Positions 1 to 46,775 are shown, counted from the first letter of the stretch. The stretch: 64,000 nucleotides of DNA from a virus (IMGVR_UViG_3300042291_000844:160001-224000), one strand, 5' to 3'. Translations and numbers: made by a program. The notes: a model not told the origin generated them from the letters alone.

Positions 1-116
1 ATTCAGTAAGTAACACTTTCTCCGGCCGGATGGTGGTCTACCCCATATTACTTACCTATCTCGTTCTCACCACCCCCGAGACAGGAGGGCTTGTCTGCCA
101 ATTTCAACACCTTACA
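1..116 (-). tRNA. Atypical tRNA-like element (Leu-type D arm, GTC loop, long insertion); 3' part lies outside the window
   Basis: Minus strand reads TGTAAGG-TG-TTGAAATTGGCAGACAA-G-CCCTC-CTGTCTC-GGGGG, followed by more than 70 nt with no T arm before the window edge. Confidence 0.5.
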
Positions 117-2470: not shown

Positions 2471-3102
2471 ATTAACTCTAGTTTTTCATTAATTAATAAA
2501 TTATAAAATTTATTTGCTTTATCCATATCTTTTACTAATTCATCCCACAACTCAGGTATACTTTCTTTAATCCAATTTGATAATTTTTGTTTACTTGTAA
2601 ATGCATATTTAAACCGTCCTTTAAGTGCAGGAATTCCATAATCAAATTTATCATGTGGAATATCAACATTACACTTTTCTTTTAAGAATGATGTTAAATC
2701 AGATAAGTGAATAACTTTAATTGTATTGGTATTATCTTTCCAAAAGTTATATAAGATTTCATAATAATTAATATCCCAATGAGTAGTACCACGAGTATTT
2801 GTATCAGTAGTAATAAAGTTTTTAATTAATGGAATTGCGGTTTCAATTGATAATGATTCCTTATTAAGATAATACCACATAAAAATTTCAGTATGTAATG
2901 CCGATTGTAAATGTTCAAATGGTTCTCGTATTACAATAGTAGATATGTTTTTCATATCATATACTCCATTATTTTCCCATATTGAATAATCCTCTGAACT
3001 ATAATTAGCATCTTTAATATCATTTGGATATACTATTTCCAAATAAGTACTACCACATTTAAGTGGAGTTAATATTTGATTATTAAATATTTTAAAAGTC
3101 AT
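2467..3102 (-). CDS. Sulfotransferase-like protein
   Basis: PLKCGSTYL (5'-PSB-like) and IREPFEHLQS (3'-PB-like) motifs. Confidence 0.55.
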   Translation of the reverse strand: MTFKIFNNQILTPLKCGSTYLEIVYPNDIKDANYSSEDYSIWENNGVYDMKNISTIVIREPFEHLQSALHTEIFMWYYLNKESLSIETAIPLIKNFITTDTNTRGTTHWDINYYEILYNFWKDNTNTIKVIHLSDLTSFLKEKCNVDIPHDKFDYGIPALKGRFKYAFTSKQKLSNWIKESIPELWDELVKDMDKANKFYNLLINEKLELI

Positions 3103-3120
3103 TTATATAATTGTTTTATC

Positions 3121-4821
3121 TTATTTACTTAATTCCAACTGTCTTTGTAATAATTCTGCTGCTTCCTTTTCTTTCATTTGTTCTTCGTGTAATTCTTGAT
3201 ATAAGCCTCTATTGTAAATAGAATATGGAATACCTATTTTTTTAAATGATGCTTCAATCTTTTCTAATCTATCTAATCTATCTTTTGGTGTATTATATTT
3301 AGTTGAAAAATTTACACCATTTATATATTCAATCCATTCTTTCTCAGTATCTCTCCATCTAATTAATAAAGGTTGATGTATTAAAAATGCAGAACACGTT
3401 AAAATTTCAGACATAACATCATGATATTCCTCTACAAAATCTACGGTCTGCTGGAAATCTTCTTCAGTCTCATTTAGGTATCCAATAATTAATTGCATTG
3501 CAAACATTAGAGGATATTCGTTTTCTTTATTAATTTGTCTAACATTTTCAAAAATTTGTCTTACCCCATCCATATCGGTATACTTCTTCATATGTTCTAA
3601 TACCGGCTCAGAAGCAGATTCAAATCCTGTAATCATTTTCATTAATCCGGCTTGACGATATAATCGCATCGTATCGATATCTCGCATAATAGATTGTAAT
3701 CTCATATTACCACCCCAAGTGATTCCACCTAATCCACCCCAACCTTTTTCAATAATTCTTTCACAAAAAGTTCTTAACCATTTTGCATTACCATTAATAA
3801 TACTATCATGACAAAAGAAATTTGTTCTGCCTTTATTAATCCAATATTCAATTTCATCAATTACGTTTTCAATATTACGATAACGGAATTCTGGTATGAA
3901 ATCTGGTACTGAACAAAATGAACATCTATAAGGACAACCCCTACTCATTACTAATGGCACATTATGTTGATATACCGATTTATAATAATAGTTATCTTCT
4001 AAGGATGAGTAATCAGGGAATGGTAGTAAATTCATATCCACATTTGCACGAGTAGAGTTATGGATAAGAACTCCATTTAATCTCCAAACAATTCCTTTTA
4101 TTTTTAAAAGTGATTCCTCACTCATATCAGATTTTAGAATTTCAACAAACGTTACTTCACCATCACCTCTAGATATTATATCTATGAAATGATAATCATG
4201 TGTTTTATAATTTGAATTTGGTAATTTACCAAAATCTAATACTTCTACCCCATTACCACCTAAAAGAATTTTAACGTGTGGATATTTTTCTTTAACCAAT
4301 CTTGCTATAGCTAATGAGGCATCTATATTACCATCAATGATACTAAATCCGATAAACGCCGGATTTGCTTTTTCAATATACCTACCCACATATCCATACG
4401 CCATATCATAAATTTCTTTATGATTATATAGGAGTTCATATTGCCCTTGTTTTGAATAAGTGTTAAATAGATTAAAAAACTCACTTCCTTTATCAGGGGG
4501 ATTCAAAAAGAAATAATCTATAATAGGGTCTATGATTGCGACTCTTAAATCTGGATGAAATTTATCTATATATGATTTCAATCCAACAATACCGGAGTAA
4601 TAACCTGATTCATTTATATTTGGTACTTGCAATAATAAACAATCTTGTTCCTCAATATCTTCAAATAAAAATTTATGTTGAACTTCGATATGACTATTAA
4701 CTGCAATGTTTTGTTGACGGATGTATTGTAAAAGGTCAACCTTTACATCCATAACAGCCTTACCACTTTCTATTTGTTCTTTTAACCGCTTTTCGGTTTT
4801 TTTTATCTCCTCTTCAGACAT
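3121..4821 (-). CDS. B12-binding radical SAM protein (class B methyltransferase-like)
   Basis: SRGCPYRCSFC CxxxCxxC motif; upstream cobalamin-binding domain (GFS...ILLGG...GDGE); GFES motif; start moved to MSEEEIK to avoid overlap with the upstream gene. Confidence 0.88.
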   Translation of the reverse strand: MSEEEIKKTEKRLKEQIESGKAVMDVKVDLLQYIRQQNIAVNSHIEVQHKFLFEDIEEQDCLLLQVPNINESGYYSGIVGLKSYIDKFHPDLRVAIIDPIIDYFFLNPPDKGSEFFNLFNTYSKQGQYELLYNHKEIYDMAYGYVGRYIEKANPAFIGFSIIDGNIDASLAIARLVKEKYPHVKILLGGNGVEVLDFGKLPNSNYKTHDYHFIDIISRGDGEVTFVEILKSDMSEESLLKIKGIVWRLNGVLIHNSTRANVDMNLLPFPDYSSLEDNYYYKSVYQHNVPLVMSRGCPYRCSFCSVPDFIPEFRYRNIENVIDEIEYWINKGRTNFFCHDSIINGNAKWLRTFCERIIEKGWGGLGGITWGGNMRLQSIMRDIDTMRLYRQAGLMKMITGFESASEPVLEHMKKYTDMDGVRQIFENVRQINKENEYPLMFAMQLIIGYLNETEEDFQQTVDFVEEYHDVMSEILTCSAFLIHQPLLIRWRDTEKEWIEYINGVNFSTKYNTPKDRLDRLEKIEASFKKIGIPYSIYNRGLYQELHEEQMKEKEAAELLQRQLELSK

Positions 4822-4834
4822 ATATATTTTATAA

Positions 4835-5095
4835 TTACCATTTACCAATTGGACATTGAGAACCGCGAGATAGTGTTTTTGCTGATATGTTACAACCACA
4901 ACCAAACTTTCGTTCACCGGTTGTTATATGGATTCCCCATTTGTTTGGGTCACACGAATTACCTGTTCTAATTAAACATTTATCACAATGTAATAAACGA
5001 TTAGATGCTAAGTCCTGAGTATCAGAATCTAAGATATCAAATTGCTGTCTAACATAATTACCCCAACCCTCTAAGATATGTATAATGTTAGCCAT
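4835..5095 (-). CDS. Small Cys-rich protein (DUF6171-like)
   Basis: CxxC...C...GCGC...AK...CPxGKW pattern. Confidence 0.6.
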   Translation of the reverse strand: MANIIHILEGWGNYVRQQFDILDSDTQDLASNRLLHCDKCLIRTGNSCDPNKWGIHITTGERKFGCGCNISAKTLSRGSQCPIGKW

Positions 5096-45446: not shown

Positions 45447-46775
45447 CTAATCAATATAAACAAAATCCAAATATTTATCAGATTTTAATTTTTGGCGAAT
45501 TCTTTCATCTGAACATTTGAAATGATTTGCTGCTTCTAACAACGAATAAAACTCCATACCTTCACAACTAATTATCGGCACTTCTATACGAATTGTGCCG
45601 TTCCATAGTTTTTCCATTTCATCATATGTAATATCCCATTCATCAGTTTTTTTCCAATGACGGTATTTTAAGTTACCAGAATCTATAAAATTACGAGCTC
45701 GTTGTTCACTAAAATCTCCACCAATTAGTTCTGATATTTGTTTAGGGGTTTCAAATGGAATACCATCCACCTCATATCGAATTGTGGGTTTAGTTTCTGC
45801 TCCTACTATTTGCCAATCTTTGTATTTTGATTTAGTAGATTTGCATCTACGTTCTATCTCCGTTGCAACTAATTCATTTGGGTCTATTGATATTGCTGCT
45901 TCTCTGAATGATTTATATCTAATCCCATCTACAATACATTTATACGAACCATCCCAATTAATATCTTCAGTTGCTAAATCAGGATTACCCTTTACAAATA
46001 CTAATATGTTTTGATGAACCGATGCTATTTTTCGATTTCTATCAAAATATGTTTTGGATATTTTAGATGCCTGATGTTGTGAATTAAATAACACCATATC
46101 GTTATAAAAACTAAAACCAATTTCCTCACATCCCATTATTGTTTTAGCAACTAAGTTTCGATACTTACCGATTTTATAATTCCCTGTCTTAGATACCTCA
46201 CGGGTTTCTGATAGAACTATACAAAAGAATCTATTATCTTTTAGTTTAGAATAGGACTCAGTTAAAATGTGTGCATATGCATCATCAAAATCCTCATCAT
46301 CCATATTTGATAAATCGTTTTCATTATCAGAATATATTTCTAAATCGTAGTAAGGTGGACATGTAAATACAAAATCATAGGTTTCATCATCAAGTGTTTC
46401 CAATATCTCTGCACTATCACCTACTATCCAATTTGGTTTTTCAGATTGTTTTTGATTTGCAAGGATTTGAGTTTCCGATATATCAATGCCGGTGTAATTG
46501 TATCCCATTTCTGATGCAACTATACCTCTAACACTGCCTCCTGCAAATGGGTCTAATATAGTTCCGCCTTTGGGACAAAACCATTCATACATCAATTCAC
46601 ATAATGTAGCATCAAATATTGATACGGAAGGTTCTTCAGTATCCCAAAAATTTGTTTTGGAAATAGTTTGTTCTCTACCTAATTCAGATTGAATTTTATA
46701 GGTATTAATCCACCATCTCTTTCTATCTTGCCACTCTTTTGTACGAGTGTCTAAAATAGAGAAAGGTTTAATCAT
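45447..46775 (-). CDS. Amino (N6A/N4C) DNA methyltransferase with C-terminal NUMOD1-like repeats
   Basis: LDPFAGGS motif I, TCPPYY motif IV; three (V/C)(D/E)G...(Y/F).S/T..(E/Q).A-type repeats. Confidence 0.8.
   Translation of the reverse strand: MIKPFSILDTRTKEWQDRKRWWINTYKIQSELGREQTISKTNFWDTEEPSVSIFDATLCELMYEWFCPKGGTILDPFAGGSVRGIVASEMGYNYTGIDISETQILANQKQSEKPNWIVGDSAEILETLDDETYDFVFTCPPYYDLEIYSDNENDLSNMDDEDFDDAYAHILTESYSKLKDNRFFCIVLSETREVSKTGNYKIGKYRNLVAKTIMGCEEIGFSFYNDMVLFNSQHQASKISKTYFDRNRKIASVHQNILVFVKGNPDLATEDINWDGSYKCIVDGIRYKSFREAAISIDPNELVATEIERRCKSTKSKYKDWQIVGAETKPTIRYEVDGIPFETPKQISELIGGDFSEQRARNFIDSGNLKYRHWKKTDEWDITYDEMEKLWNGTIRIEVPIISCEGMEFYSLLEAANHFKCSDERIRQKLKSDKYLDFVYID

Follow-up and report, generated by a model that had tools for sequence, protein, structure and literature searches.

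A viral tRNA-Asp-shaped RNA with a conserved, folded arm of 77 bases in place of the small variable loop

The viral DNA stretch IMGVR_UViG_3300042291_000844:160001-224000, which is 64,000 nucleotides (nt) long and is here called the window, begins with part of a gene for an RNA that has the shape of an aspartate tRNA and in which the small variable loop has become a conserved, folded arm of 77 bases. Bases 116 to 1, read on the minus strand, almost certainly make up the first three-quarters, counted from the 5′ end, of a gene of about 149 nt that belongs to a giant-armed, Asp-type family of tRNA-shaped RNAs. The 5′ end of the RNA lies at base 116 and its 3′ part is cut off at base 1, RNA position p corresponding to window base 117-p. 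About 33 nt of the gene, comprising the closing strand of the arm, the T arm, the 3′ strand of the acceptor stem, and the discriminator base G73, lie beyond the window edge. Within the window, the anticodon-type stem is followed by 72 more bases, which hold a helix of 10 base pairs (bp), the motif GGGGUAGACCACC, and the palindrome UCCGGCCGGA.

The part of the gene that the window lacks can be read from a relative. An exact 35-mer probe taken from the D and anticodon arms matched 10 contigs in IMG/VR, and a window-specific 52-mer matched a single metagenome contig, locus L128, whose copy (2584-2732, minus strand) is identical to the window copy over all 116 nt. The L128 copy continues as CG-CAUC-GU-GGUGG-UUCGAGU-CCAUC-UCUUACA-G (L128:2584-2616), which supplies the partner of GGUG at the base of the arm, a T arm, a strand complementary to UGUAAGG, and the discriminator G73; the full gene is therefore 149 nt long. 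The T arm, the 3′ acceptor strand, and G73 are present in every full-length relative, and for the window copy they are known via L128 only. The initial annotation of this DNA, made from its sequence alone, had correctly recorded that no T arm is present, which follows from the cut made by the window edge at RNA position 116. It had also allowed for a decayed tRNA fragment, recognizable by the absence of a T arm, an acceptor strand, and covariation; both parts are present in L128 and covariation is strong, and decay is ruled out by this complete, identical copy together with hundreds of intact homologues. Among 50,697 cultured phage records, the window stretch as query matched only the neighboring tRNA-Ser and a full-length relative as query matched nothing, so that, as far as that collection goes, the family is known only from uncultured phages.

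The family is large and its fold is well supported by comparison. The search pattern, GGGUNGACCAC followed after 30-60 nt by GGUUCGAAUCC, was run on IMG/VR and on a species-representative genome set, giving at least 120 matches in viral contigs and at least 120 in the genomes, the latter nearly all from Bacteroidota among the matches listed. Bacterial carriers include Saprospiraceae, Dyadobacter, Aquirufa, Runella, Chitinophagaceae, Puia, Niastella, and Flammeovirga. An alignment of 101 distinct full-length viral copies was made with MAFFT and was not fitted to structure, the structure being written from the L128 copy. In this alignment, 95.6% of cells in paired columns are paired, compared with 42-58% when the partners are slid by 1-3 columns, and 32 of the 41 pairs show changes on both sides (718 cells), values not attained in any of 500 shuffles. 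In the long arm helix, the closing U.G and A-U pairs never switch pair type; they are paired in 90 of the 101 MAFFT rows, and T102 and G103 are invariant. The bacterial set gives a similar picture, with 93.1% of cells paired against 47-63% in the slid controls and changes on both sides in 33 of 40 pairs. A covariance model built from the 101 viral members, R1, scores the window element (116..1) at 103.4 bits (E 2.5e-27), aligning it to model positions 1-122 of 156 and flagging it as 3′-truncated. In 100 bacterial loci, the same model finds about 117 family copies among 120 matches, and clear members (at least 83 bits) occur in 14 of 151 evenly sampled Bacteroidota genomes, or about 1 in 10. 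The window element is thus a real structured RNA gene in which all helices covary, and not a product of chance.

Arm length varies from 45 to 150 nt across the family. Short members of 114-121 nt, which carry a simple hairpin arm of about 40-45 nt and lack GGGUNGACCAC, adjoin long members in the same genomes, and this juxtaposition suggests a series that leads from short to giant arms. Some bacterial loci hold the RNA in tandem arrays, as in Flammeovirga pacifica, where five copies spaced at about 197 nt occupy L204:3688-4630 on the minus strand; other arrays are found at L148, L134, L181, and L129.

The position of the arm within the molecule is informative about its nature. It starts one base after the anticodon-type hairpin and stops two bases short of the T stem. 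A covarying 4-bp stem of its own forms its base, and this is the anatomy of a variable arm and not that of an intron in the anticodon loop. The initial annotation had proposed, as one option, a group I intron that splits a tRNA after U33. The structured insertion that it described does exist, but it consists of 77 nt (RNA 46-122) at the variable-arm position, past a complete hairpin and not inside the loop. A group I or other intron is rejected on size, position, covariation, Rfam, and ARAGORN run with introns allowed (option -i). The smallest group I introns are about 200 nt long. No family in Rfam 15, whether group I, GOLLD, or any other, matches the window copy or its full-length relatives even at E≤10; this includes the canonical tRNA model RF00005 as well as the group I intron model RF00028. 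At the gathering score, the models for GOLLD, ROOL, and other large phage RNAs found nothing in the window and nothing in 10 related loci. In favor of a self-splicing or other intron, or of a decayed fragment, there are only the excess length and the absence of a T arm from the window, and the sequence of the arm is more conserved than an intron would need, making these explanations extremely improbable. Other elements of the initial description have held up on the minus strand, among them a Leu-type D arm (107-91), the CCCTC/GGGGG hairpin closing CTGTCTC with U at position 37 (89-73), and the TCC-GGCC-GGA hairpin (21-30). The 8-bp stem that it placed at 6-13 and 48-55 is likewise real and extends to 10 bp (46-55 with 6-15) once an invariant U.G and an A-U pair are added. 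Its further suggestion of a tRNA-like domain or decoy was right as to the tRNA likeness; the gene is, however, a complete stand-alone one of about 149 nt and not a domain of a larger RNA.

ARAGORN leaves the window element uncalled. With introns allowed, it makes one call in 12 copies at default stringency and, at low stringency, assigns mutually inconsistent anticodons, so that no consistent call emerges. When the arm is deleted in silico, 47 of the 101 copies are called tRNA-Asp(gtc), and those still missed are mostly copies with an insert in the D loop. Single-sequence folding by minimum free energy (MFE) does not recover the fold supported by covariation (z = -1.2, not significant). The MFE fold instead pairs ACCACCA of the arm with the T stem, a pairing that does not covary in the family. 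In the L128 copy (2584-2732, minus strand), the invariant ACCACCA of the arm at RNA 80-86 is perfectly complementary to UGGUGGU of the T stem at RNA 124-130. Because covariation is lacking in the family, this complementarity is probably incidental, although it could permit an alternative fold in this subfamily.

Which bases of the tRNA body are conserved bears directly on what the RNA may do. U8, G9, G12, A14, A15, G18, G19, A21, and C24 are invariant in the 101 viral copies, as are the GUC triplet (G34, U35, and C36) and G73; C38 is found in 99. Of the 101 viral copies, 100 have the pair U1-A72, as do 109 of the 110 bacterial ones; G2-C71 and the T loop are also invariant or nearly so. C74 is encoded after G73 in every copy, the full CCA in only 9 of 102. 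Five strong aspartate determinants have been described, G73, G34, U35, C36, and C38 (PMC9976931), and this bacterial identity set is complete here, the loop of the window copy being CUGUCUC. The remaining features of bacterial tRNA-Asp, namely G1-C72, G10, U33, a purine at position 37, and a short variable loop, are absent or not conserved. Across the viral copies, the anticodon-type loop reads CUGUCUC in 55, UCGUCUC in 24, UUGUCUC in 8, CCGUCUC in 5, CAGUCCC in 4, and other sequences in 5. At position 33, U occurs in 64 copies, C in 31, A in 5, and G in 1 (37% non-U), and all but one of the 101 copies have U or C at position 37. In about half of the copies, the T stem contains a bulged base. 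U33 and a purine at position 37 are near-universal requirements of decoding tRNAs. Judged from this pattern of conservation, the loop keeps the bases that aspartyl-tRNA synthetase (AspRS) is expected to read and drops those that decoding needs. The leucine identity set, A73 with a Leu anticodon context, is not present, the discriminator being G73. That of bacterial serine tRNAs is present in part, with G73, G2-C71, and a large arm; in place of its C72, position 72 is A, and in place of its C11-G24, the 11-24 pair is U-A in 74 of 101 copies.

The arm itself holds invariant motifs. Ten positions of one of them, G74, G75, G76, U77, G79, A80, C81, C82, A83, and C84, are invariant in the viral copies, and GGGUNGACCAC is kept in most bacterial copies, its invariance being partly by construction as it was part of the search pattern. 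This consensus probably forms a hairpin of 3-4 bp with a UNGA loop and a bulged A. An A-rich internal loop is also invariant in the arm, with GAAAUAG opposite UGAAUC in the subfamily of the window. A pairing of the GUC loop with GAC of the arm motif was considered and rejected: both are invariant, their flanks do not covary, and the pairing has no support.

Phage and bacterial copies differ at the tip of the arm. In phage copies, the motif GGGUNGACCAC is followed by a hairpin that is perfectly palindromic over its full length, as in GCUUGCAAGC, GCCGGCCGGC, AGCCGGCU, GCAUGCAUGC, and GCUAGCUAGC; the arm of the window copy likewise ends in a perfect palindrome, TCCGGCCGGA. Perfect tip palindromes of at least 8 nt occur in 82 of 101 viral copies compared with 4% of shuffled segments. 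Of the distinct 4-nt hairpin loops in phage copies, 41 of 42 are palindromic, against a chance expectation of 1 in 16; of the 4-nt loops in bacterial copies, 1 of 25 is. Most bacterial copies have no palindromic tip and carry instead a hairpin 5′ of the motif with ordinary loops such as GCAA, GAAA, and UAA. As the hairpin itself needs no self-complementary loop, tip-to-tip pairing of two RNA molecules is probably the simplest reading of the phage arms, and the use of many different palindromes argues against recognition by one sequence-specific protein or a restriction site. Dimer-versus-monomer energies computed with RNAcofold (median -16 kcal/mol for viral and -9 kcal/mol for bacterial copies) do not discriminate because any hairpin-rich arm gains energy as a symmetric dimer. 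The D loop contains a hairpin insert in 54 of the 101 phage copies, although not in the window copy. Some of these inserts are palindromic, and among the palindromes are 20-mers that need G.U pairs and would therefore act at the RNA level. One type of insert has a covarying stem and a conserved 7-nt loop, CUCAGUU, and looks like a second anticodon-like loop.

The function favored here, with moderate confidence, is that of an RNA that is processed like a tRNA, may be aspartylated, and does not decode. It would be transcribed together with neighboring tRNAs; RNase P and the 3′ processing enzymes would trim its ends, and the CCA-adding enzyme would complete the 3′ terminus, of which C74 is the one CCA base encoded throughout the family. 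All these enzymes need an intact acceptor/T minihelix, which is found here with an encoded G73-C74. The anticodon-type loop and the discriminator would be presented to AspRS and to other proteins that read tRNA-Asp. Retention of the Asp determinants with loss of U33 and of purine 37 makes it likely that AspRS charges or at least binds the RNA and that GAY codons are not routinely decoded by it. The arm, through its GGGUNGACCAC hairpin and its internal loop, would provide a handle for a putative partner, and in phages two molecules would pair via their self-complementary tips and act as dimers. An extension of this proposal, in which dimers or chains of the phage RNA would occupy the two sites of a dimeric, tRNA-Asp-reading host protein and thereby rewire or protect the Asp/Asn tRNA metabolism of the host during infection, is distinctly unlikely; candidate targets would be AspRS, an anticodon nuclease, or a modification enzyme, and some of the D-loop hairpins might serve as additional sticky ends.

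Several observations weigh against an aspartylated, non-decoding RNA. G1-C72, which is strictly conserved in bacterial tRNA-Asp and helps to position the acceptor end in AspRS (PMC9976931), is replaced by U1-A72, and G10 is not conserved, position 10 being variable. G73, G2-C71, and the large arm fit part of the set read by seryl-tRNA synthetase, so that serylation is possible. In the yeast AspRS-tRNA structure, the synthetase approaches from the side of the variable loop, where a 77-nt arm could clash. The palindromes could have been selected at the level of DNA. Further, the tandem multi-copy arrays of bacteria, such as the five copies in F. pacifica, resemble the behavior of ordinary tRNA genes. 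A rather unlikely alternative is a genuine tRNA-Asp isoacceptor with a very long class II-style arm, charged by AspRS, carried by EF-Tu, and decoding GAC and GAU codons, possibly in special circumstances or for genes of the phage. The cloverleaf is complete and its 7-nt loop invariably holds GUC; these features, the same-strand tRNA arrays and the tandem bacterial copies, and the tRNA-Asp calls made by ARAGORN once the arm is removed all agree with a decoder, and class II tRNAs show that long variable arms are compatible with the ribosome. Against decoding stand the loss of U33 in 37% of copies, the pyrimidine at position 37 in 100 of 101, the bulged T stem in about half, and invariant arm motifs that far exceed the needs of a passive extension. 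Canonical tRNA-Asp genes also coexist with the giant-armed RNA: those with the loop CUGUCAC and a short variable loop number two in Dyadobacter sp. 32, four in F. pacifica, and one in D. psychrophilus, and, in the DNA fetched for the 101 viral loci, 19 of the loci also have a canonical tRNA-Asp.

The same contrast between kept and lost loop bases could be explained without charging. An uncharged mimic, whether decoy, sponge, or regulator, would titrate or redirect a factor that reads the anticodon loop of tRNA-Asp, such as an anticodon nuclease, a modification enzyme, or AspRS. The conservation of the protein-read bases G34, U35, C36, and C38 with loss of the decoding bases is what a mimic would show, the phage-specific self-complementary tips would suit dimeric partners, and genes of the RNA-repair type lie near phage loci (2H phosphoesterase in 11 of 102, metallophosphatase in 10, PF04308 in 23). 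This explanation, too, is rather unlikely. G73, C74, and a perfect acceptor stem are strictly kept, as expected if the 3′ end is used and as a pure anticodon-loop decoy would not need; no partner gene is universally linked; and the 1-5 copies kept by free-living bacteria are left unexplained. A sub-case of the favored function, in which AspRS charges the RNA with Asp and GatCAB then amidates it to Asn off the ribosome, is very unlikely. The pair U1-A72 is the determinant that lets GatCAB amidate Asp-tRNAAsn, whereas G1-C72 prevents it (PMC9976931), and its near-invariance here is suggestive of such an asparagine platform. Of the 151 sampled Bacteroidota genomes, 14 are carriers, and all 14 have the gene gatB, as do genomes G002 and G003. 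It is present, however, in 126 of the 151 (83%) regardless, the co-occurrence has a p of about 0.07 and is confounded by phylogeny, and the test is therefore uninformative; carriers also have AsnRS.

Few shapes in biology are as constrained as that of tRNA, and variable arms longer than about 25 nt lie outside the textbook picture. A literature search found no description of a giant-armed tRNA-Asp-like family, which apparently is an undescribed variant of tRNA. With tRNA-Asp(GUC) (RF00005), the family shares the cloverleaf with its 7/5 acceptor/T branch, GUC in a 7-nt loop, occurrence in tRNA arrays, and the bases C38, G73, G2-C71, and T loop UUCGAAU. It differs in having a 77-nt arm in place of a variable loop of 4-5 nt, U1-A72 in place of G1-C72, a pyrimidine in place of A37, an unconserved position 33, a Leu-type 3-bp D arm, and, in many copies, a D-loop insert and a T-stem bulge. 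Class II tRNA-Leu has the same 3-bp D stem and a D loop close to the one here, GAAAUUGGCAGAC, and class II tRNAs in general share a helical extra arm between the anticodon stem and the T stem. Their arms, however, measure about 10-25 nt against the 45-150 nt of this family, which are branched and contain invariant motifs, and the discriminator and anticodon here are G73, not A73, and GUC.

The nearest published objects are the allo-tRNAs, which are long-armed, occur in metagenomes and phages, have GUC among their predominant anticodons, and have been proposed to act as missense suppressors or regulatory RNAs (Mukai et al. 2017, PMC5389517). They are defined by a 12-bp acceptor branch of 8/4 or 9/3 organization and by serine identity, and have been reported mainly outside Bacteroidota. 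In contrast, the RNA described here has a covarying 7-bp acceptor stem and 5-bp T stem, an arm several times longer, and no retention of U33 and purine 37, which places it outside that group. tRNAs with group I introns, such as cyanobacterial tRNA-Leu(UAA), are likewise encoded by over-long genes, but the insert is inside the anticodon loop, has about 200 nt or more, and has a P1-P9 core, whereas here the hairpin is intact. The tRNA-like domain of tmRNA and the bacterial Y RNA YrlA (PMC4201824) are also tRNA-shaped modules that act beyond ordinary decoding and are phage-encoded too; they lack an anticodon arm or are mimics inside a larger RNA, whereas here there are four arms and the RNA's own ends form the acceptor stem. 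In its possible mechanism only, the palindromic tip resembles the dimerization initiation site (DIS) of HIV-1, where the sequence varies and self-complementarity is kept, and GOLLD and ROOL, which are phage-encoded, lie next to tRNA genes, and self-assemble. There is no relation in sequence or structure to the DIS, GOLLD, or ROOL, and dimerization of the present RNA is suggested from palindrome statistics alone.

The gene in the window sits in a phage tRNA cluster, on the same strand as the tRNAs. A tRNA-Ser(UGA) at 211-296 on the minus strand (55.9 bits with RF00005), which is the only tRNA called near the element by ARAGORN and Rfam 15, is located 94 nt upstream on the same strand. A tRNA-Ser is the direct upstream neighbor within 200 nt in 25 viral loci, and tRNA genes are found within 1 kb in 73 of 101, all 189 of them on the strand of the RNA gene. 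When open reading frames within 4 kb were clustered across 102 loci (the 101 viral loci and L128), no universal protein neighbor was found; the commonest genes are those for an RNase H-like protein of PF04308 in 23 loci and a 2H phosphoesterase in 11, followed by those for a metallophosphatase and a family B DNA polymerase, in 10 each. The genes for PF04308, the 2H phosphoesterase (Acb1/LigT type), and the metallophosphatase are mostly on the same strand as the RNA gene. Positions of the features of the window copy and of selected relatives are collected in Table 1, together with the covariation counts for each helix.

Other unusual genes were noted along the way. A second over-long tRNA-like gene, of 120 nt and scoring 37 bits with RF00005, occurs in the same phage tRNA clusters at L002:6143-6262 and L009:9201-9320, both on the minus strand. 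Its D arm is of the Leu type and its discriminator is A73; between the D and T arms lie about 45 extra bases, no anticodon arm is obvious, and the gene may be another kind of expanded tRNA. At L010:634-855 (minus strand), a permuted tmRNA of the two-piece type (RF04321, 54.4 bits) lies inside a phage cluster of 22 tRNAs that also contains the giant-armed RNA. Elsewhere in the window, a B12-binding radical S-adenosylmethionine (SAM) protein of 598 amino acids (3121-4917) and a DNA N6/N4 methylase fused to an I-TevI-type DNA-binding domain (45447-46775) are both phage-encoded, on the minus strand.

Table 1. Features of the giant-armed RNA gene in the window, helix covariation in the 101 viral copies, and positions of related elements and neighboring genes
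Feature	Location	Strand	Sequence, pairing, or basis
Acceptor stem, 5′ strand	window 110..116	-	UGUAAGG (begins U1, G2, U3); RNA 1-7; partner UCUUACA in L128
U8 and G9, then D arm	window 91..109	-	D stem 3 bp, UUG/CAA; from alignment
D arm	window 107-91	-	UUGAAAUUGGCAGACAA; from sequence
D loop	within window 91..109	-	AAAUUGGCAGA, tRNA-Leu type, G18 and G19 present; close to tRNA-Leu D loop
Anticodon-type arm	window 73..89	-	5-bp stem CCCUC/GGGGG, 7-nt loop CUGUCUC; from covariation
GUC triplet of anticodon-type loop	window 82-80	-	followed by U at position 37 and C at position 38
Giant arm, base stem, 5′ strand	window 68..71	-	GGUG; partner CAUC past window edge, read in L128
Giant arm, internal loop, 5′ side	window 56..67	-	AGAACGAGAUAG; family consensus A..A.GAAAUAG; invariant A at RNA 58 and 60
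Giant arm, long helix, 5′ strand	window 46..55	-	GUAAGUAAUA; pairs with window 15-6
Giant arm, invariant motif	window 32..44	-	GGGGUAGACCACC; family consensus GGGUNGACCAC; from alignment of 101 viral copies
Giant arm, tip	window 21..30	-	perfect 10-nt palindrome UCCGGCCGGA; 3-bp hairpin with self-complementary GGCC loop, or intermolecular self-pairing site
Giant arm, long helix, 3′ strand	window 6..15	-	UGUUACUUAC; pairs with window 46-55
Giant arm, internal loop, 3′ side	window 1..5	-	UGAAU; A114 and A115 invariant; window edge cuts gene here
Acceptor stem, covariation	101 viral copies		both-side changes in 7/7 pairs; 99.9% of cells paired
D stem, covariation	101 viral copies		both-side changes in 2/3 pairs
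Anticodon-type stem, covariation	101 viral copies		both-side changes in 5/5 pairs; 100% of cells paired
Arm base stem, covariation	101 viral copies		both-side changes in 3/4 pairs; 99.8% of cells paired
Long arm helix, covariation	101 viral copies		both-side changes in 8/10 pairs
T stem, covariation	101 viral copies		both-side changes in 3/5 pairs
Short members	L134:3384-3504, L134:3611-3731, L174:6171-6286, L185:1512-1630, L200:4047-4160
CUCAGUU D-loop inserts	L013:2645-2814	+
CUCAGUU D-loop inserts	L016, L023, L069, L081, L124, L127
Recurring neighbor gene, example	L065:3436-3897	+
Recurring neighbor gene, example	L114:9985-10515	-
Recurring neighbor gene, example	L070:1547-2299	+

A conserved, covarying arm of 45-150 nt on an otherwise complete tRNA departs from the textbook view of this molecule, and the gene is omitted from the annotation of genomes of Bacteroidota and their phages, the family being missed by standard tRNA finders and by Rfam 15. 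The self-complementary tip specific to phages offers a simple, testable handle on its function. Charging without decoding would add a new example of aminoacyl-tRNA chemistry that operates off the ribosome; a mimic would point to a putative tRNA-Asp-reading pathway that phages manipulate. Should dimers or chains of the phage RNA prove to clamp a host protein, they would represent a new kind of phage RNA effector derived from a tRNA-like RNA of the host.

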